A stretch of DNA of 64,000 bases from a virus. The stretch covers positions 96,001-160,000 of IMG/VR virus record IMGVR_UViG_3300026488_000012. One strand, 5' to 3'. A program made the position numbers and the translations under genes. Each line of letters starts with the position of its first letter. Within the stretch, counting starts at the first letter, position 1. Shown piece by piece: positions 2,233 to 64,000 of this stretch. The notes below the pieces were generated by a model. It was not told the DNA's origin and searched no databases. It saw nothing but the letters and a program-made list of their open reading frames with translations.

Positions 2233-4581
2233 ATGATGATGAAATTTTTAGATATGGACGCTACAGTAGATGACGCTACTGTAGCGTCTTCTTATAACGA
2301 AGAAGACTATATAATTAAAGACGTAGGTGAAGCCCTTGTTTTACTTAAAGCGGTAGATGATGTTCAAACAGGATTAGAAGAGATAGATGCAACTGAGAAT
2401 GCATTAGGTAAATCGATGGAAGCGTTAGCTTTAGCTACTGAGCTATGGATGGAGTATTCATCGATAAGTCCTGGTTTGGAAGATAGTTATGCTATAGAAG
2501 ATAAAACTAATAAGCTATTCCAACTTACTGACGAGTTAAATATAGAATTACCTCCATCTGCGGGTATGTTAGACAGCGATAAGGATGACGAAAGTAACAC
2601 TAACATCATCTTTAAAATATTAAAGGGTATATGGGATTTTGTAATTAGGATAGTTAGAGGATTTATAAGTCTTATACGTAGAATAATTAGAGGATTTATA
2701 ACTATAGTTAAAAAGATATTCGGTATAAATGACGTCTATGAAAAAGCAGAGAAAAAGAAAGAAGAAGATTTATCCAGACTTGCTGGTGGAGGAGGAGGTT
2801 TCTCCATAGGAGGCGTATCTAGATCAGGAGGTAGTTCTAGTAGCGAAAAAGCTGAGAAGGTAGTAGAAGAAAATAAAACAAAAACAGAAGAAGCTAAGAA
2901 GATATCTGAAAGCGTAGATAAAGCAACCGAGACTAAAAAACCAGAAGAAGCAGATGTGACTAAAACAGGTGTAAAGTCTATAGACGAAGCTATAGAGGAA
3001 TTAGAGAAAATGCCACAAGAGTTTAAAGACGATATATTAGAAGCAGCTAACGACATAGTTAGAAGAACTAAAAAATTAATCTATGAACACTTCAGAGCTA
3101 CATATAGCGGTACCAAGTATAGCATAAAACATATACAGACTTCTTTAGCATTTCCATACATACATGCTTGTTATCTAGCCGCTACTATTAACACATATGT
3201 AGATGTTATAGAATCTCATAAATACGTTAACGGTAGGACAACACTAAACGACTTTATTTCCAGTATAAACGGTAGATTAGCAGAAATAGAAAAAGTACTA
3301 GATGAAAAAAGGATACGTTCTTTTATAACTAACGATGAGTACAGTAACATATATGAGCTTATAGATACGTTAAATAAAGTATTAGGTTATACAGATACTC
3401 GTGAGTTTGCTAATGGTAGAACTATAAGAGGTGAGTTATCTGTTTTAGACTTACTATTTATTCTTATGGGATTCTTGGAAGAAGAGGCTGGTTACATAAT
3501 GGATAACAAATTCACAGAAGTTGTAAGTCCTATTAATGAAGCATTTAGAGGAAGTTTAACTCCTTTAATTAAATTTGAACATACAGCTGGTGATAGTTTA
3601 AAGAATTTAGAAAAAGAGATATTTAACAAGATAGGGTTTAAACTTGTGGATAATAAATACTACGTAGGTAAGATGGGAGATGTTAGACGTTATCTATCAG
3701 GTTCTTTTGAAAAGATAAAAGATAACGAAGAAATAAAGATAGATGTTCTGTCTATAAACGGTAATATACTACATATATTCGTAATTCCTAAAGAGGTTAA
3801 TCTTACGATAGATTACGAACCAGAGTTTATGAAAATGAGGATAAGCTTTAGTACCTTAATGAAGGAACGAAAAGGTGATTTAAAACTAATTAAAAAAGAT
3901 TTAAGAGAGTATATAAGATATATAAAAGACGTTAATGATTATTTACAAAGTTTCTTTGCTACTGTACGTGTAGGCAACTTTGTCATAACGGAAGATTTAT
4001 TCGATTATGATAGTATAACGTTACCAGGGTACGAAAATCCAAGAACTTATGAAGACATTAAAAGTATATTTGGTTATTTACAAAAGGTAAGTTTTCCTAG
4101 AATAAGAGACGAATTAGGGCTAGGAAAAGTACCTATAAATATGGTAGAGGATATGTTGGAAAACAGTATTTTAGCTAATTTAGACAAGTTAGAGAAGACA
4201 GTTGAAAGACTTGATAAATTAATAAAACGTTCTATTAAGTATACGTATAAATTAAACGTTAGAAAAAGTAAAGAGGAATATAAGAAAAATCCTATTTATG
4301 TAGATGGTAAGCCTATGTCTTATAACGAATATCTGGAATGGAAGAGATCAATTATAAATGAATTAACAGGTCTATATGTTAATGTCTCCGTTAGTATAAA
4401 ACAGGTTATATCTTCAGTACTAACTAAGTTTATTAAAAACATAGTTATGATGGCTGTTACTGATTTAAGAGTGATATTAGATAACCCTAATTTAATAAAG
4501 GCATACTACATAGACTTAGATGCAGAGAAAGCGTTTTTAGACAAATATTATAAATACTTAGAGGAAAGGGAGAAAGTATGA
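2233..4581 (+). CDS. Inner head / ejection protein, paralog 1 (phiKZ gp93-gp97 type)
   Basis: Acidic propeptide with G-x-E motifs (TGLEE, PGLED) followed by the amphipathic helix IIFKILKGIWDFVIRIVRGFISLIRRII; N-terminus MKFLDMD is shared with the next two genes. Confidence 0.65.
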   Translation: MMMKFLDMDATVDDATVASSYNEEDYIIKDVGEALVLLKAVDDVQTGLEEIDATENALGKSMEALALATELWMEYSSISPGLEDSYAIEDKTNKLFQLTDELNIELPPSAGMLDSDKDDESNTNIIFKILKGIWDFVIRIVRGFISLIRRIIRGFITIVKKIFGINDVYEKAEKKKEEDLSRLAGGGGGFSIGGVSRSGGSSSSEKAEKVVEENKTKTEEAKKISESVDKATETKKPEEADVTKTGVKSIDEAIEELEKMPQEFKDDILEAANDIVRRTKKLIYEHFRATYSGTKYSIKHIQTSLAFPYIHACYLAATINTYVDVIESHKYVNGRTTLNDFISSINGRLAEIEKVLDEKRIRSFITNDEYSNIYELIDTLNKVLGYTDTREFANGRTIRGELSVLDLLFILMGFLEEEAGYIMDNKFTEVVSPINEAFRGSLTPLIKFEHTAGDSLKNLEKEIFNKIGFKLVDNKYYVGKMGDVRRYLSGSFEKIKDNEEIKIDVLSINGNILHIFVIPKEVNLTIDYEPEFMKMRISFSTLMKERKGDLKLIKKDLREYIRYIKDVNDYLQSFFATVRVGNFVITEDLFDYDSITLPGYENPRTYEDIKSIFGYLQKVSFPRIRDELGLGKVPINMVEDMLENSILANLDKLEKTVERLDKLIKRSIKYTYKLNVRKSKEEYKKNPIYVDGKPMSYNEYLEWKRSIINELTGLYVNVSVSIKQVISSVLTKFIKNIVMMAVTDLRVILDNPNLIKAYYIDLDAEKAFLDKYYKYLEEREKV

Positions 4582-17380: not shown

Positions 17381-17486
17381 GGTAATATTTTTAATTTTAA
17401 CTATATATATTGTTATCTTACTAAAATGCAATAAAACTACAAGATTAGGAGGTAAATATGAGTAATGAATTTTACAAAATTAAGGA
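17381..17486 (+). repeat. 106-bp direct repeat, copy 1 (early promoter + RBS + first 10 codons)
   Basis: Identical base for base to 25946-26051; 75 bp of it also occurs at 30132-30206. Confidence 0.95.
17414..17421 (+). promoter_or_regulatory. Putative early (virion RNAP) promoter core TATCTTAC
   Basis: One mismatch to the phiKZ early promoter core TATATTAC, with an upstream T-rich tract. Recurs at 19035, 22760, 25979 and 30158, with variants at 28299, 42703 and an exact TATATTAC at 46632. Confidence 0.6.
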
Positions 17487-28273: not shown

Positions 28274-28325
28274 TGTTATTTCAAATTTTTTCATTTATGT
28301 ATTACTAAACTGTAACAAAACAAAA

Positions 28326-28446
28326 AACCTCTCTACCAAGTACTGCTCCTCTGGTGTGAAGGAGAAGGTCGAGACTAACCCCGGTGGTATAAGGGGAGTC
28401 AGAAGACCTTCTCGACGAAGAGGAGACGTGGAACGGTAGAGAGGTT
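28326..28446 (+). ncRNA. Unassigned structured RNA leader, copy 1
   Basis: Four nested helices (12, 7, 9 and 4+4 bp) with compensatory changes relative to copy 2 at 46661-46794; conserved loops AGUACUG, AGAA, GACGA, GUGGAA. Confidence 0.8.
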
Positions 28447-28460
28447 AAAAGGAGTAGATA

Positions 28461-28967
28461 ATGAAAAAAATTAAAGTGGAGTACGATTATAAAGAAATTT
28501 CTTCCCCTGATATTGACGTTATAAAGGAGATAAGAATTGGCGAGAAAGTAGTCTCGCCAATAGCAGTAAAAGGAGTAGAATCCATTAGTCCCAACAGATT
28601 ATTTAGCAATGTAACTAGTGCAAGAGCAATAGTTCTTGCTTATCTTTTTGAGGATGAGATAAATAATTTGTTGCCTTACCCTATGATGATTTTCGATAAT
28701 AGAGGAACAAATGTGGTCGCTACGGAAAGAGAGGAAGATGAATTTCTCTCTTATGATTATGTAGATATGACAGGGGTTAATTGTGGAAGAAGTCAACCGA
28801 CTTATAAGATATTTGAGTTAACCGGGGACCTAATGACCGATGTTTATCACATCATTAACCCTCCGGTGAGGATAGATTATATCTATCCTAAGTTTAGAGC
28901 GGATATTCTTTATTTAGGGAATCAGGCGTTCGCTCTACTTGATGTAGAATTTATAAAACCATATTAA
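28461..28967 (+). CDS. Hypothetical accessory protein downstream of the structured leader
   Basis: 168 aa; SD aaaaggag directly 3-prime of the RNA basal helix. Confidence 0.7.
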   Translation: MKKIKVEYDYKEISSPDIDVIKEIRIGEKVVSPIAVKGVESISPNRLFSNVTSARAIVLAYLFEDEINNLLPYPMMIFDNRGTNVVATEREEDEFLSYDYVDMTGVNCGRSQPTYKIFELTGDLMTDVYHIINPPVRIDYIYPKFRADILYLGNQAFALLDVEFIKPY

Positions 28968-45571: not shown

Positions 45572-46081
45572 ATGGAAAATTATAAAATTATAGAAGATTA
45601 CATAAAAAAGATAGAAGAACTATCCGAACGTGATATGATACCAGAGGATAAAATAAATGGAATAATTAATTCTATATGCTCTCTTATCCTAGAGTTATAC
45701 AAAAAATCCTATATAAAACCCGATAAGGAATATTTACTTAGTAAAGGATCCTTACGCGATCCGGGTTTCGGTAAAGAAAGGGTTGACATTTTTATAGCTG
45801 TTAAAGATGGTGAAATAAAACTTATAAAGAAAAATATGTTTGGAATGGACGAATATAATTTAATAGAAAACTTCGCAAACGAGTTTAATTTTTGCAAGGA
45901 GTTTAAAGATTATTTACTAAATTTTGTTAATAGCGAAGTTGACGATGTTCGCGATATGGAGCTTCTACTAGATGTTCTGAGATTTATAAAAGATGTACTA
46001 AAAAATGGGTATATTAGAAGAGAGAAAAAAGTAAACAGCATTATAAATGTTGTTTTAGAGACATTAAAAGAAAATGATTGA
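45572..46081 (+). CDS. Hypothetical protein
   Basis: 169 aa, SD aaggagg. Confidence 0.7.
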   Translation: MENYKIIEDYIKKIEELSERDMIPEDKINGIINSICSLILELYKKSYIKPDKEYLLSKGSLRDPGFGKERVDIFIAVKDGEIKLIKKNMFGMDEYNLIENFANEFNFCKEFKDYLLNFVNSEVDDVRDMELLLDVLRFIKDVLKNGYIRREKKVNSIINVVLETLKEND

Positions 46082-46092
46082 AGGAGGTAGTA

Positions 46093-46551
46093 ATGAAAAG
46101 ATTAGTATTAACTTGCAATGGTAGAGGTGTGGTAGAGGCTATTTATGATAAAGACGATAAAATAGATAACTATATAAAAGAAGAACTAGATGGTAGTTCA
46201 GATAAATTGTTTACAGAAGTAAACTTAGAAGACTCAGGTGCTAACATAGTCAATGGTTATTTAAGGATACCTATTAAAGATGTAGATGGTAATTTTAATC
46301 CTGAAGAAAAACGTATGATGGTAGAAGTGGTAGAGTGTGAAGAGAGTCTTACTGTAAAAATTACTAATAACACTACTAGAAAAGATATGGACAAGTTATT
46401 TAAGGAGGAATGGGAAAAAGTAAAAGACTTAAACCTAGGATGTAAAAAGGTAGAAACAGATAATTCTAAGTCTATAATCTGTGATAGTTATAGATATAAG
46501 GTATCATTAGTGGATGACGATAGTATTTCCACTATAATTACAGTTGATTAG
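46093..46551 (+). CDS. Hypothetical protein
   Basis: ATG 46093 after SD aaggagg. Confidence 0.65.
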   Translation: MKRLVLTCNGRGVVEAIYDKDDKIDNYIKEELDGSSDKLFTEVNLEDSGANIVNGYLRIPIKDVDGNFNPEEKRMMVEVVECEESLTVKITNNTTRKDMDKLFKEEWEKVKDLNLGCKKVETDNSKSIICDSYRYKVSLVDDDSISTIITVD

Positions 46552-46580
46552 TAATAGAATATCGAGTTTAATAAACAGTT

Positions 46581-46612
46581 AAAAATAACCGGGAGTTATC
46601 TCGGTTATTTTT
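46581..46612 (+). terminator. Terminator hairpin
   Basis: aaaaataaccggga-gtta-tctcggttattttt followed by a T-run. Confidence 0.7.
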
Positions 46613-46631
46613 TTTTATTTTTTTATAATTA

Positions 46632-46639
46632 TATATTAC
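46632..46639 (+). promoter_or_regulatory. Early promoter core TATATTAC
   Basis: Exact match to the phiKZ early promoter core, preceded by a T-rich tract, about 20 nt before the structured leader. Confidence 0.65.
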
Positions 46640-46660
46640 TAAGATACGTGATTAAAAAAA

Positions 46661-46794
46661 AACCCGTAAGTCCTTTTTGAAAGAGTACTGCTCTCCTGGA
46701 GAAGGAGGAGACTACGACTTATCCCGTTGTTCTGTGGGAAGTCAGAAAGTCTCCTCGACGAAGGAGAGATGTGGAAAATCAAGAAGGCAGGGGT
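46661..46794 (+). ncRNA. Unassigned structured RNA leader, copy 2
   Basis: Same four-helix fold as 28326-28446 with different but complementary stem sequences. Confidence 0.8.
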
Positions 46795-46808
46795 AAAAGG
46801 AGCCAAAA

Positions 46809-48995
46809 ATGGCTAAATTAATAGTGAAAAGAGATAGAATTGTATTTAAAAAAGAAACTATCTTAGAAAATAGATCTTTGACAATTAAAGGTCTAAAAAG
46901 ATTTCTCAACAAGAGAAATCTTAAAATAAAAGAAAAAGATTTAAGCGCAGCATATGCTGCGTATACTGGAGAAAATTCTCCAGTTAAAGTTCCTGTTATA
47001 ACAGGGAAAAGAAGAAAAGGAGTTGTTTCTAGGGAAGAAAGAATCCCTAGAAACACTCCTGTTAAAAGTCTAAGGGGGGATATCCTCCCTAAAAAAGTCT
47101 CTTTAAAAGAGAGACTTAAAGCGGCTGTGAAAAAAGCAAAAGAAGACGGTCATAGATTCGCAGCCGTTAGAACCGCATACGGTCTTATCGAAGTTCGTAG
47201 AAGAACGAGCTTTGATGAGACCTATGAAGTTTTTATGGAGGTCTTTAAAGAAAAAAGGGCTGAAATACTAGCGTATGAAAAAGCGCTAAGTGAGGACTTG
47301 TCCCATCCTCACTTAGCGAAACATTATATTAAAGAGTTTGGGGACAAAATTATCCCATACTTTAAGCTGGTTGATACAATGGCTTTATCCTACGGTATGA
47401 ATCCAAGGAACGTGTGGGATTCATGCGGAGTATGGGGAATATCTCCTGACCTATTCCTATTCAAGATTGGTGACAAAGAACATCTTCACAACATAAAAGT
47501 TGTGAAGATGTTCGTGGAGATAGCCCTAGAAACTTTAAGAGTTAGGGGGAGGGTGGATCGTATTCCAAGTATATTCCACCCATCAGTATTTTTCGAACAA
47601 AGAGAAAGAATGAAAGAATACAAAGAAAAAATTGATTCTAATATAGTCTATCCAGGGATCGAAGAGTATGAAATATTTATCTCGATCTTCTGGAGACTAT
47701 ATAAAAAATACGGAGTAGACGGAATTCCGTCACTACGCATTACCCAGTTAATGAACTGGGATGAAACCTGGGATGAATTACTGGGTTGGAAAGACGAGGA
47801 TCTATTACCTCTAACGCTAATGTTAATAGATTCGGACTTCTACTCCATCGATAAAGTTAAAACCGGTGAGGGTAGAAGAGGCGGCTATTATAAGATAAAT
47901 TTCAGAAAACTAAATAACTGGAAGAAACTTAGCAAGAGGGAAAAAGCTAAGTTTCTTCCAGCGCCATTAGCTTGGAGACTCCTATTCAATAGGAAAGCTC
48001 CAGATGGAATCGAATTTCGTGATCCTAATCCTGTTAACTTCACGAGAGCTTCTCAAAGGGCTTTTCGTGAGTTAGCAGAAATCATCAAACGCGACGACAG
48101 GGGATATTTTGCTGCTAACATTAAAGCAGCGTATCACCTTAGTCTCGCGTTTGGTGATATGAATACAGTGAAAAGATGGCTAAACGCACTAGGATTGAAA
48201 GTGGATGCGCTAGGCATTCACGACGCGTTCGTAAACGCCCACCATTTCTTAAAGCTTAAATATAAAGAAAAATGGGCGGCGCTCCTAATCAAATTCCCTG
48301 GGCTCAGAAAAGTTACATGGGCTTTTAGGGAGTTTGAGAGGGAGTTTGGACGCGTAGCAACTAAAACTGAAATCAGTAGCTATGCCGCGACTAAAAAATA
48401 TAGGAATGTAAAATTAAAAGATGTCGCGGAGATAGCTGCTGAGTTAAAATTATCTCAGAGGGAATTTGAGGATTATCAAAACTTTTTCCTCAAAACCCCT
48501 GAGAAAAAATCTACTATGTTACCAAATGTGGTTGTCGAGAAAGGTGAATATAAATTTAGAAAACTCGATGACCACGATAAAATAGGCCCGTTCTTAGGGT
48601 TGTTGACAGACTGTTGTCAACACCTCCATAACGCAGGTGACACATGTGCTAAGGCGGGATGGAGGGACCCTGAGAGCGGGTTCTATGTCGTCGAGAAAGA
48701 CGGCAAAATAGTTGCACAATCTTGGGCGTGGAGAGGTAAAAAAGGCGAGCTTTGCTTTGACTCTATAGAAGGGCTCGGTAATGTTAATGTTAATATAATT
48801 GCCGAGCTATATAAAGAAGCAGCTCGTCAGTTAGTCGGCAAAATGGGGATCACTCGCGTGACTGTGGGTGATACCTCATATGGCTTAACTGAGGATGTAA
48901 AACAAATCCTCGGTGGAGTCAACCGCGAGTCAGCGGTCATGATCAAAAAGGTGTCTTATACAGACGCTGATGATCAGTGGCTCTTAGCCGACTAA
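46809..48995 (+). CDS. Large accessory protein with basic N-terminus and probable GNAT-fold C-terminal domain
   Basis: C-terminal GFYVVEKDGKIVAQSWAWR-GELCFDSIEG-IIAELYKEAARQL-ITRVTVG follows the strand/helix order of GNAT acyltransferases; base composition visibly more GC-rich than core genes. Confidence 0.5.
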   Translation: MAKLIVKRDRIVFKKETILENRSLTIKGLKRFLNKRNLKIKEKDLSAAYAAYTGENSPVKVPVITGKRRKGVVSREERIPRNTPVKSLRGDILPKKVSLKERLKAAVKKAKEDGHRFAAVRTAYGLIEVRRRTSFDETYEVFMEVFKEKRAEILAYEKALSEDLSHPHLAKHYIKEFGDKIIPYFKLVDTMALSYGMNPRNVWDSCGVWGISPDLFLFKIGDKEHLHNIKVVKMFVEIALETLRVRGRVDRIPSIFHPSVFFEQRERMKEYKEKIDSNIVYPGIEEYEIFISIFWRLYKKYGVDGIPSLRITQLMNWDETWDELLGWKDEDLLPLTLMLIDSDFYSIDKVKTGEGRRGGYYKINFRKLNNWKKLSKREKAKFLPAPLAWRLLFNRKAPDGIEFRDPNPVNFTRASQRAFRELAEIIKRDDRGYFAANIKAAYHLSLAFGDMNTVKRWLNALGLKVDALGIHDAFVNAHHFLKLKYKEKWAALLIKFPGLRKVTWAFREFEREFGRVATKTEISSYAATKKYRNVKLKDVAEIAAELKLSQREFEDYQNFFLKTPEKKSTMLPNVVVEKGEYKFRKLDDHDKIGPFLGLLTDCCQHLHNAGDTCAKAGWRDPESGFYVVEKDGKIVAQSWAWRGKKGELCFDSIEGLGNVNVNIIAELYKEAARQLVGKMGITRVTVGDTSYGLTEDVKQILGGVNRESAVMIKKVSYTDADDQWLLAD

Positions 48996-49012
48996 CCTCT
49001 CCTTTTTTTTTT

Positions 49013-57359: not shown

Positions 57360-57395
57360 AGATACAGATATGGGGATAAAACCCGTATCTGTATT
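57360..57395 (+). terminator. Terminator hairpin
   Basis: agatacagatatggg-gataaaa-cccgtatctgtattt followed by a long T-run. Confidence 0.7.
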
Positions 57396-57457
57396 TCATT
57401 TTTTTTTTTCATTTATATATAGTTAAACTGTAACAAAACAAAAAAAAGGAGTTAAAA

Positions 57458-58453
57458 ATGGAAAAAATATTAAAACTAAGATATACCCATAGAACTATTC
57501 ATAATGAAACAGGGTTGTTTTACAACCCTAAAACTAAAGAGTTCGATATCGTCTGGACCGATCCAGACGGTATATATACGTTAAATGATAAGGTTATTCC
57601 AACAAAAATTAAAAGGTGCTGCGCAAGTGTTAAAGTTAGGGTAGAATTACCCGATGATTGGTTATATGTTGGGAAGGTGAAGAGACTGGATATTAATAGA
57701 GTTGCTTTTTACCATCCGAGTCTCAAAGACGATTTGGGTGGTTATTATACTGACTTTTTATTAATAAATATAAAAAATAACGTCGCATATGCTTTTAGCG
57801 GCGTTATATGTTCTCATACTGGGCTAAGCGGATACGCTGATGAAATAGATTTCACTCAGTACTTACTTACTGGTAGTGTTTATAAATCAGTGATTAAACA
57901 TGAGAAAATTAGAATTGAAAAAGAAGGAGTATGTATAACATTCCCTCGTAAACCAGGAATTAGAAAAGAACTGTTAGCGTGTCTATATTATAGATTCGAC
58001 TCGCTGGTTTACACAGGAAACGACAGAAGGAGACTGGGAGGGTTGTATAGTTTTGTGGATCGTACGACAAATAAGGTCCTTATAATAGATAATGTATTTA
58101 ATCCAAAATATATATTAATTAAATCAGTCCACTCACTCGAAGAATACGAGTGGACTTTCCATTTATACAGAGATCAGGAATTACTCAAGAGGACCGGTCT
58201 CCCGTATAAATGGAAAGGAGATACCCTAATAATATATGATAAAGTGCCTGTAGCTATTAATAATACTACAAGTGTATACGGGGATGAGTATATGCTCTGG
58301 AATAGAACTTGGGTTAACAGTATATCATTAATCGAGTCCATCGATAAAGAACTTATCGATGATTTGGAAGATTACGCCAAAAAGCTCATGAGTTCAGGAA
58401 GTAATGAAACTACAGAAGATATAGAGGAAATTGAAGAAATTACAGAGGACTAG
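57458..58453 (+). CDS. Hypothetical accessory protein
   Basis: 331 aa, early-type A-rich leader, acidic C-terminal tail. Confidence 0.7.
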   Translation: MEKILKLRYTHRTIHNETGLFYNPKTKEFDIVWTDPDGIYTLNDKVIPTKIKRCCASVKVRVELPDDWLYVGKVKRLDINRVAFYHPSLKDDLGGYYTDFLLINIKNNVAYAFSGVICSHTGLSGYADEIDFTQYLLTGSVYKSVIKHEKIRIEKEGVCITFPRKPGIRKELLACLYYRFDSLVYTGNDRRRLGGLYSFVDRTTNKVLIIDNVFNPKYILIKSVHSLEEYEWTFHLYRDQELLKRTGLPYKWKGDTLIIYDKVPVAINNTTSVYGDEYMLWNRTWVNSISLIESIDKELIDDLEDYAKKLMSSGSNETTEDIEEIEEITED

Positions 58454-62588: not shown

Positions 62589-62878
62589 CTAAGTTTCATA
62601 ACTACACTTTTGTTATCAGTGACGATGATTCCCTGAAATTACCATCTATACTTAATGAAGTTGATAACATTTTAGATAATGCTAATACGTATGATGACGT
62701 AGTTATAGGGTTCAAAGAGTTATTAAGTAATAAAAACGCTTATGATATCCTGAGTAGTATGGATGAACTCACGTATGTCATAACCATAGAGTTCAAACCG
62801 TTAACTAATGAACTATTTGAATTTCTAATCAGAGAAACAGGTAATAGTTATCCTATAATAGACTTTACATACAGGTAG
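62585..62878 (+). CDS. Start-less 97-codon ORF in the -1 frame of 61890..62588 (frameshift extension or split by a sequencing error)
   Basis: VTKFHNYTFVISDDDSLKLPSILNEVDNILD...IIDFTYR*; no ATG/GTG/TTG until codon 59; begins at the A_AAA_AAG heptamer and ends in a terminator. Confidence 0.6.
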   Translation, partial: VTKFHNYTFVISDDDSLKLPSILNEVDNILDNANTYDDVVIGFKELLSNKNAYDILSSMDELTYVITIEFKPLTNELFEFLIRETGNSYPIIDFTYR

Positions 62879-62899
62879 GGGGGTTTCTCCTATCTGTAT
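62869..62899 (+). terminator. Terminator hairpin
   Basis: atacaggtagggg-ggttt-ctcctatctgtat overlapping the TAG of the -1 frame ORF. Confidence 0.65.
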
Positions 62900-62975
62900 A
62901 TCATTATTTTTTAATGTTCTCATCGGGATATAAGGCGGGTATCAGTTGAATTATCTAGTAGATAAGGAGTAATCT

Positions 62976-64000
62976 ATGTTTATTTTAAAGATAGATCCTA
63001 TTAAAACTAACGGCGATATAAAGCATGAAAAGACTAGCTGGCAAGTCAGCTTAAGTCCTGATTTCAACGATGATGATGTTGTTTTTCAATCGTTAGAGGA
63101 TACTGAGAACCTTACGCAGATAAGAGTTCCTTTACCACTGACAGAGAACGATTTATATTATACAAGAACTAAGATACATTTCTCTGATGATACTGAGAGC
63201 GATTGGAGTAGACCTAACATAGTAACTAGAAATGCAACAGGCTTTACATTTTCAGATACGGTATTGGTTACTCCTGAACTTAGTATAGACTTTGATAAAA
63301 GAAATGCTCCTTTAGGAGGATTCACAGTAAAGACAACACCTTTTACTCTGTTTATGGGTATAGGTAAGCATAGAAGTACTAACTGGATAATAGAAGATAC
63401 TTCTGGTAACACGATATGGAAAAGGTTAGATGATAAACATAACTTAACAGAGATACGTATACCTTCTAACATATTAGAACCAGGTAAAATGTACACAATT
63501 AAAGCTTGTCACATCTCAGATACTAACGCATATAGTAACTATGGTAAGTTAAGAATTATTACAAATCCTGATTTAGTAAGAGACCCTATCTATCAGTATG
63601 ATAAAAATATCTCTTTACTTAAACTATTTGAAACTAACACTGCGTTATTACAGTTATTAAGAGACTACACTCCTGTAGATGACCTATTGAGTAAGATTAT
63701 TGAACTAAACATAGAATCAGGATTGAAATCTAATGTTATAGACAAGCTAAATAATAAGCTTAGCATACTGAGAGGATTTATAGATAAGTTAGTGTTATTA
63801 GGAGATATAGACGATGTTACTGAGGAAGATATAGAGAGAGCTGAAGAGATTACTAGCGATATATTAGGTATACTAGACGAAATAAAAAGTACAGTATATA
63901 AAGATATCAGCGATAATGAGATTTCAAGTATTAAGAAAGTATTGACGAATATACCTAATCGACTTAGAAGTATCTTGGAGTTAAAAAACACTAATGAGAC
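62976..64000 (+). CDS. Ig/FN3-like repeat virion protein fused to a helical region; 3-prime truncated (not in ORF track)
   Basis: ATG 62976 after SD aaggag, open to the window end: MFILKIDPIK...HEKTSWQV...HRSTNWII...LEPGKMYTIKACHIS; paralogous to 35101..35988. Confidence 0.75.
   Translation, partial: MFILKIDPIKTNGDIKHEKTSWQVSLSPDFNDDDVVFQSLEDTENLTQIRVPLPLTENDLYYTRTKIHFSDDTESDWSRPNIVTRNATGFTFSDTVLVTPELSIDFDKRNAPLGGFTVKTTPFTLFMGIGKHRSTNWIIEDTSGNTIWKRLDDKHNLTEIRIPSNILEPGKMYTIKACHISDTNAYSNYGKLRIITNPDLVRDPIYQYDKNISLLKLFETNTALLQLLRDYTPVDDLLSKIIELNIESGLKSNVIDKLNNKLSILRGFIDKLVLLGDIDDVTEEDIERAEEITSDILGILDEIKSTVYKDISDNEISSIKKVLTNIPNRLRSILELKNTNE

Follow-up and report, generated by a model that had tools for sequence, protein, structure and literature searches.

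What is the strongly structured stretch at positions 46661-46794, directly in front of a 728-aa gene of unusual base composition, and does its structure belong to DNA or to the message that follows? The locus lies in what we call the window, the whole 64,000-nt stretch of DNA that was analysed, which covers bases 96001-160000 of a 179,975-bp IMG/VR contig of 30.5% GC. An earlier note, made from the letters of the window, had seen the same fold at 28326-28446 and proposed a portable RNA element attached to accessory early genes, whose mRNAs would share a fate. Here we find that the stretch belongs to a set of five copies, of which four differ from one another, of an uncatalogued structured RNA about 120-135 nt in length, and that the element forms the + strand 5' untranslated region of the downstream mRNA.

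Five copies of one structured RNA

The genome that carries these copies belongs to an uncultured phiKZ-like giant (jumbo) phage from hydrothermal-vent samples, and the DNA runs that contain it are hydrothermal-vent metagenomes. The major capsid protein of the phage is of the PhiKZ type (E 8e-95). Its multisubunit RNA polymerase is split, and the beta piece shares about 30% identity with its counterparts in cultured phiKZ-like phages. A single query with the phiKZ nuclear-shell protein gp54 returned no match in the phage, and we therefore do not call it nucleus-forming. The first ~60 contig bases, which fall inside one copy of the element (copy E), recur as the last ~66 bases. Because the end repeats the start in this way, the ends of the assembly probably join, giving a ~179.9-kb circle or a terminally redundant genome; once contig positions 179880-179975 are joined to 1-137, the break lies within a block of ~190 nt that is identical between the units of copies A and E. 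The CheckV completeness of 66% is probably too low, since two relatives of 185-186 kb have terminal repeats.

Further copies were sought genome-wide, as the earlier note had suggested, with a covariance model built from four copies and run on the whole 179,975-bp genome. The search (cmsearch) returned five matches with E values from 1e-29 to 1e-33, all on the + strand, and each of the five copies stands before a different, unrelated gene. Copies A and B were seen both by fold and by the model: the element of copy A spans window positions 28326-28446 (model match 28316-28465), and that of copy B, the locus in question, spans 46662-46794 (model match 46660-46813, 157.9 bits). The covariance model places copy C at 3.1 kb of the contig, copy D at 62.6 kb and copy E across the contig junction. 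When contigs of four DNA runs were compared, copy A was found unchanged in a second vent sample.

The fold shared by these copies is one long, irregular, kinked hairpin that forms independently. Minimum-free-energy structures of 46661-46794 and 28326-28446 have their helices and loops in the same order, in agreement with the earlier note, at -53.6 kcal/mol (z -4.4) for copy B and -59.7 kcal/mol (z -6.0) for copy A, and RNAalifold on this pair of copies gives 33 common pairs, 9 of them changed on both sides. Across all elements the folding energies range from -51 to -60 kcal/mol; in silico the fold survives heating to 70 C, where -22 to -27 kcal/mol remain, and is marginal at 85 C. In copy B, on the + strand, the predicted helices run from P0 (46662-46665/46791-46794) and P1 (46672-46680/46779-46787) through a loop of AGUAC and GGAA (around 46684-46688/46771-46776) to P3 (46691-46697/46762-46768). 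A GGAGAAG/GACGA loop then separates P3 from P4 (46705-46713/46748-46756), and P5 (46716-46719/46740-46743) and P6 (46722-46726/46735-46739) follow, with an AGAA loop at 46744-46747. The earlier note had described the basal helix as entirely different in sequence and as carrying an added bulge, and both features are present: P1 is CCUUUUUGA/UCAAGAAGG in copy B and AACCUCUCUACC/GGUAGAGAGGUU in copy A, and in B an outer helix, ACCC/GGGU, closes across an asymmetric loop. Copy D has a base of the same type as copy B, and P1 consists of 9-12 strong pairs across the copies.

The RNA-level fold is clearly kept by selection. In a model-guided alignment of the five copies, which represent four independent versions rather than five because A and E are identical across the element, standard pairs occupy 97.3% of pair cells, and 15 of 37 consensus pairs have changed on both sides. 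This covariation rests on four paralogues of a single genome, and since paralogous copies exchange segments, the independent events are fewer than the cells. Even so, none of 500 shuffles reached the observed level of pairing and covariation, and sliding the 3' partners by 1-3 columns left only 43-51% of cells paired, with 0-3 both-side-changed pairs. Nine G-U cells are compatible with the + strand only; a good fold is also obtained for the reverse strand, which is true of long hairpins in general. We read the element on the + strand because of these nine cells and because, in every copy, the promoter lies 5' and the gene 3' on that strand.

Conservation is distributed unevenly along the hairpin. 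There are four versions of the P1 sequence and three each for P3 and P4, and the three purine-rich internal loops (AGUA/GAA, GA..GACGA and AGAA) are invariant. AGUAC and GGAA, which adjoin P1, are identical in 5/5 copies, and the distal part, GACU / CCCG.UG, is also without variation. Thus the helices drift by compensatory change, and the three internal loops are fixed. In the first of these loops 5'-AGUA-3' lies opposite 5'-GAA-3' with helices on both sides, which is the signature of a loop-E/bulged-G (sarcin-ricin) motif at the level of sequence. Beside P3, GA occurs on both strands in all copies, an arrangement compatible with a K-turn. The 3-nt bulge of a canonical K-turn has its match in B and C only (GGA); A, E and D have bulges of 5-6 nt there, and between the GA pairs and P4 one strand counts 2 nt and the other 3 nt.

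Two further ideas about the element were tried and rejected. A leader peptide is one of them, an AUG within the element being confined to the B/C-type core. The other, that the terminal loop pairs with the 5' tail, was rejected by eye, as a conserved complement is absent.

A predicted transcription unit of its own

Each copy sits between a TATATTAC-type promoter and AAGGAG + ATG, and a terminator-like hairpin lies upstream of each (named for A, B and D). Because such a hairpin precedes it, each copy is taken to form its own transcription unit. Upstream of copy B the preceding unit is closed by a terminator-like hairpin with a 14-pair stem and a T run (46581..46612, + strand). An exact TATATTAC core follows at 46632..46639 (+), and the first paired base of the element, 46662, lies 22 nt past it, close to the distance of about 20 nt given in the earlier note. 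The inferred start of copy B, 6 nt after the core at 46646 (+), is an A where the other cassettes have a conserved G; from there, 16 A-rich, single-stranded nt would precede the hairpin as a 5' tail. For copy A the core is TGTATTAC at 28298-28305 (+), with the inferred start at G 28312. By analogy, transcription would start 13-17 nt before P1 across the copies. In AR9, the early promoter used by the virion polymerase has an AT-rich core with the start G 6 nt later, and the early promoters of phiKZ and phiR1-37 have the same core-to-start spacing (PMC5312081). On this analogy, the promoters of the element-bearing genes would be of the early, virion-RNAP type.

The element-bearing units belong to a larger set of about 28-30 cassettes in this genome, all on the + strand, with a core TAT(A/C)TTAC, then TAAnnT, G, an A-rich leader, AAGGAG and ATG. 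The leader from G to ATG measures 26-36 nt in ~21 cassettes vs 145-163 nt in the five that bear the element.

Two observations on these cassettes stand apart from the element. A second cassette flavour, TATCTTAC-TAAAnTG-CAA vs TATATTAC-TAAnnTG-TAA, occurs at 17414, 19035, 25979, 30158 and other sites; it drives RNA-polymerase subunit genes with near-identical leaders, and both flavours are found only on the + strand. At contig 70305-70465, an exact TATATTAC, an A run and GGAG are followed by a pyrimidine-rich stretch of ~140 nt with 50% GC, in which an obvious ORF start is absent.

At 57380..57472 (+) lies an empty-site twin, in which a promoter and A-rich leader like those of A and C run straight into AAGGAG + ATG. 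The leader of this cassette is 28 nt long, and when it is aligned to A and C the ~121-nt element is the only large gap. The twin matches these cassettes in promoter and leader and differs in lacking the element, which is therefore a discrete insertion into a leader of the standard type. The copies also bear marks of exchange. The promoter-element block is identical in A and E, and copy B is a mosaic, with a core from C (P3, P4 and both junctions identical) and flanks like those of D (10/12 at the 5' flank, 19/26 at the 3' flank). The portability claimed in the earlier note is thus upheld by five copies before unrelated genes, by the empty-site cassette and by the mosaic structure of B; the module may spread among cassettes by recombination within the genome.

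Separately, in an ~80-90% relative (run X3, 2025 samples) a contig matches the window only from 46794 on and is unlike it before that point. This relative may carry the 728-aa gene without the leader, as judged from one contig in which 30 letters are seen.

At its 3' end the structure of copy B closes at 46794, and the Shine-Dalgarno sequence aaaaggag follows immediately (46795-46802), as the earlier note had it, with the ATG at 46809-46811 (+); the element does not sequester this site. In copy A the corresponding sequence lies at 28447-28454 and the ATG at 28461 (+). Folding of full leaders, taken from the inferred start through the first 30 nt of the gene, gave the element as an independent domain, its helix ending 4-8 nt upstream of GGAG. 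At 37 C the unpaired probability of the Shine-Dalgarno sequence was 0.60 for copy B and 0.67-0.94 for the other copies, and values for the ribosome site span 0.6-0.97. Because the hairpin ends before GGAG without pairing to the site, the element probably does not act by hiding the ribosome site. The stretch from the element to the ATG contains no terminator-like site.

Copy B also has a short hairpin of local pairing (GAGCC....GGCUC, 46799-46815), in which part of the Shine-Dalgarno sequence pairs with the start-codon region. The unpaired probabilities there are 0.6 and 0.4; copy D is similar, and A and C have none.

Genes behind the leader

The five downstream proteins, all encoded on the + strand, are mutually unrelated. 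Copy A leads a 168-aa ORFan (window 28461-28967), copy B the 728-aa gene (window 46809..48995), copy C a 255-aa ORFan (contig 3247-4014), copy D a 282-aa MYG1-family protein (MYG1-like nuclease; contig 62761-63609, Pfam E 1.6e-25) and copy E an ORFan of 136-138 aa (contig 134-544). The earlier note saw no obvious similarity between the 728-aa and 168-aa proteins, and BLASTP finds none (best E 0.61). PHROG, NCBIfam and PADLOC gave no match for any of the five, and Pfam none for 4/5, the exception being MYG1. The description of these genes as accessory fits the absence of database families bar MYG1, their atypical composition and the terminator-promoter unit that each possesses.

The compositional shift reported for the 728-aa gene is likewise borne out: it runs at 37-47% GC vs ~30% in its flanks, and none of the 157 ORFs with 120 codons or more is richer in GC. 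Within that set the five genes rank 1, 2, 5, 11 and 68 (one-sided Mann-Whitney p = 0.001), and the leader is thus attached by preference to genes of foreign composition.

For the 728-aa protein we found a single full-length homologue, at 47% identity. An exhaustive search with residues ~360-728 gave 2,125 relatives at E<=1e-3, whose matches all fall in the C-terminal half, and no Pfam or NCBIfam family was found for the protein, this half included. With 40 relatives as the alignment, AlphaFold modelled residues 370-728 at pLDDT above 90. In a Foldseek search with the last ~170 residues, every top match was a GNAT acetyltransferase, at E 4.5e-3 and weaker and with TM by target of 0.5-0.6. The C-terminus is thus predicted to have a GNAT-like fold, which is an assignment of fold only. 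A CCQ motif is invariant across the family to which the C-terminal half (window 47880-48995) belongs. The N-terminal half is unique, and its model is poor.

Function and comparison with known systems

A common fate of these mRNAs, in stability, timing or localisation, had been put forward in the earlier note and is a reasonable supposition. As to how it might come about, the reading we prefer, with a probability of about 45%, is that the cis leader serves as a shared protein-docking site that sets translation and stability of a few early messages. The element would be a common docking site for a host protein or for a still unnamed phage protein, and the bound protein, at the edge of the 30S platform, would set the translation, and hence the lifetime, of a small mRNA group. 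The mRNAs so served would come mostly from compositionally foreign, recently acquired genes. We favour docking because the conserved parts are unpaired purine loops and because every copy has its helix up against the ribosome site. There is precedent for such an arrangement: operators directly 5' of the Shine-Dalgarno sequence, as in thrS and rpsO, compete with or trap the 30S subunit, and a K-turn bound by L7Ae in a 5' UTR represses translation. Against docking, Pfam-level searches found no L7Ae, RNase III or RegA family in the phage. The fixed loops could equally be suited to RNA-RNA tertiary contacts or to recognition by an RNase.

Recognition by an RNase leads to the next reading, in which the element is an mRNA stabiliser or an RNase III-type processing site. 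Here the quasi-continuous helix of ~37 bp would either block 5'-to-3' or endonucleolytic decay or be cut as an RNase III-type substrate, and in both cases the downstream message would keep a protected 5' end, as at the RNase III sites between early genes of T7. In favour of this, the helix is extended and very stable (-51 to -60 kcal/mol, and still -22 to -27 at 70 C), it is repeated before several early-type genes, it leaves the ribosome site free, and foreign GC-rich genes may need a longer-lived message. In structure it also has what an RNase III site calls for, at least about two turns of coaxial duplex interrupted by internal loops: its stacked helices comprise 37 pairs in the consensus. 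However, stability alone leaves the invariant loops beside drifting stems unexplained, the 13-17 unpaired nucleotides 5' of the hairpin (from the inferred start) are poor for 5'-terminal protection, the phage is without RNase III, and ~21 other early cassettes manage without the element. We regard this reading as rather unlikely, and as the most credible of the competitors.

A more specific proposal is that the element acts as an address tag on virion-polymerase messages, read by an RNA-binding protein of the phage lineage or by a co-opted host binder of K-turns or loop E, so that the expression of new genes is sorted, timed or protected. Were this true, the element would be a plug-in expression adaptor for domesticating foreign genes; we consider it distinctly unlikely.

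A little more doubtful again is a co-transcriptional signal, in cis, for the phage RNA polymerase, such as put-like antitermination, pausing or processivity. The element does always lie 13-17 nt past the inferred start of a phage-polymerase promoter, but its position is equally constant relative to the Shine-Dalgarno sequence. Furthermore, copy B at least leads a single gene, no + strand terminator was detected inside the unit, and the element resembles neither put RNA nor any Rfam cis-regulator.

The 5' UTR position directly before the Shine-Dalgarno sequence, the conserved unpaired nucleotides in the internal loops and the hydrothermal-vent habitat of the source would also suit a switch that senses a ligand or temperature (a riboswitch or RNA thermometer) and controls downstream translation. 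Docking is favoured over switching because P1, with its 9-12 pairs, is not built to switch; these pairs are strong, and the fold is predicted to persist to 70-85 C. In the five leaders there is no alternative pairing with the Shine-Dalgarno sequence and no U-tract terminator after the element, and a multi-helix junction and a pseudoknot pocket are absent. The five genes (MYG1-like, GNAT-fold and three ORFans) show no common metabolic or transport theme, and zero riboswitch families score at E<=10. A switch is therefore very improbable. Least probable of all is a selfish or passive DNA repeat (a MITE/REP-like palindrome or a recombination scar) without RNA function, which would account for the terminal inverted repeats (P1), the discrete insertion relative to the empty site, the identity of A and E and the mosaic B, but whose termini here vary yet stay complementary around conserved interior loops, the opposite of a transposase-recognised element, with G-U pairs that favour one strand, 5/5 copies pointing one way and occupying a constant position between start and Shine-Dalgarno sequence, and no target duplication readable in the A run.

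Several known systems share features with this leader. The early genes of T7 have RNase III processing hairpins between them (R0.3, R0.5, R1.1 and others), which influence message stability and translation. Like these, the element belongs to a family of irregular, internal-looped hairpins repeated before early phage genes, within the mRNA. Unlike the T7 sites, which are ~60 nt long and lie in one polycistronic transcript, the element is 120-135 nt long and has its own promoter each time; there is no sequence relation, and the element's loops carry loop-E and GA-type signatures.

With regard to protein-binding operators, the element resembles the thrS and rpsO leaders, the T4 RegA and gene 32 sites and engineered K-turn/L7Ae switches in that the structure stops a few nucleotides short, on the 5' side, of a Shine-Dalgarno sequence that is left free. 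Its conserved unpaired purines suit protein recognition, and one element serves several mRNAs, as one element type does in the RegA regulon of T4. In contrast to such operators, it has no RegA or L7Ae homologue in the phage to pair with and, before unrelated genes, no autoregulatory logic.

The arms P2 of the lysine riboswitch and stem I of the T-box combine loop-E with a K-turn, and in the element, similarly, AGUA faces GAA and lies in series, along one arm, with a GA/GA internal loop that carries a short purine bulge. A loop-E and a GA/GA loop in series predict a sharply bent rod. Neither family is found at E<=10, however; the element stands alone rather than in a multi-arm aptamer, and it is without the specifier or antiterminator parts of a T-box.

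The PeSL (promoter-early stem-loop) cassettes of T4-type phages flank non-essential variable genes and carry marks of shuffling by recombination in the identity and mosaic make-up of the copies; each combines a sigma-70-type promoter with a stem-loop that terminates transcription (PMC2839356). The present cassettes likewise repeat and recombine at variable accessory genes, as in the A/E block, the B mosaic and the empty twin. Unlike in PeSL, the hairpin of the element lies downstream of the promoter and inferred start, has no U tract and covaries at the RNA level, and the real terminator of the unit is a separate upstream hairpin.

Among jumbo phages, AR9 offers a parallel, with its own multisubunit RNA polymerases, an early promoter of the same type, unusually long leaders and shared leader motifs. 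These motifs are reported as predictions, with no function assigned, in the 5' UTRs of early and late transcripts (PMC5312081, Fig. S3). In 201phi2-1, small RNAs derive from 5' UTRs by premature termination (PMC11512511); unlike those, the element-bearing leader contains no terminator. Given the AR9 motifs and the 201phi2-1 small RNAs, structured leaders in jumbo phages are to be expected in principle. The leader family resembles T7 hairpins, PeSL cassettes and operators in kind and is a member of none; the family itself is not known to have been described.

Jumbo phages with their own RNA polymerases run an expression programme largely independent of the host, and to our knowledge almost nothing is known of post-transcriptional control in them. 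A compact covarying module on five unrelated genes, together with a natural cassette without the element, offers a handle on how early messages are tuned or protected, and on how phages plug acquired genes into their programme. As a self-contained 5' UTR part that is thermostable in silico, it could also serve expression engineering. The weight of all this is limited in that the family so far comes from one uncultured genome.

Searches beyond this genome accord with that restriction. Rfam 15, applied to the whole window at the gathering threshold, gave no match, and at E<=10 copies A and B drew chance-level hits only (best 18.4 bits vs 62 needed). In IMG/VR, four exact patterns of conserved loop and stem letters had 0 matches; a looser pattern hit at least 117 stretches, and the covariance model matched in 0 of the 80 loci fetched. 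Pattern searches of JGI metagenomes and GTDB genomes gave 9 and 11 chance matches, respectively, of which 0 fitted the model. A blastn search with window 46000-49000, the element included, against 50,697 phage records returned nothing. The covariance model found no copy in ten related IMG/VR phage records, seven with RNA-polymerase-beta identities of 41-47% (among them two complete 185-kb genomes with terminal repeats) and three with 31-33%; closer relatives, at 60-63% in RNA-polymerase beta, lie in ENA/JGI contigs.

One relative, IMGVR_UViG_3300026488_000011, has two intergenic repeats of ~290 nt (L160:5826-6117 and L162:5819-6091) that are unrelated to the leader element. They have no Rfam match at gathering, stand out at 63-66% GC in a relative of 33% GC, and combine long conserved blocks with 11 compensatory pairs; they may be another uncatalogued structured RNA.
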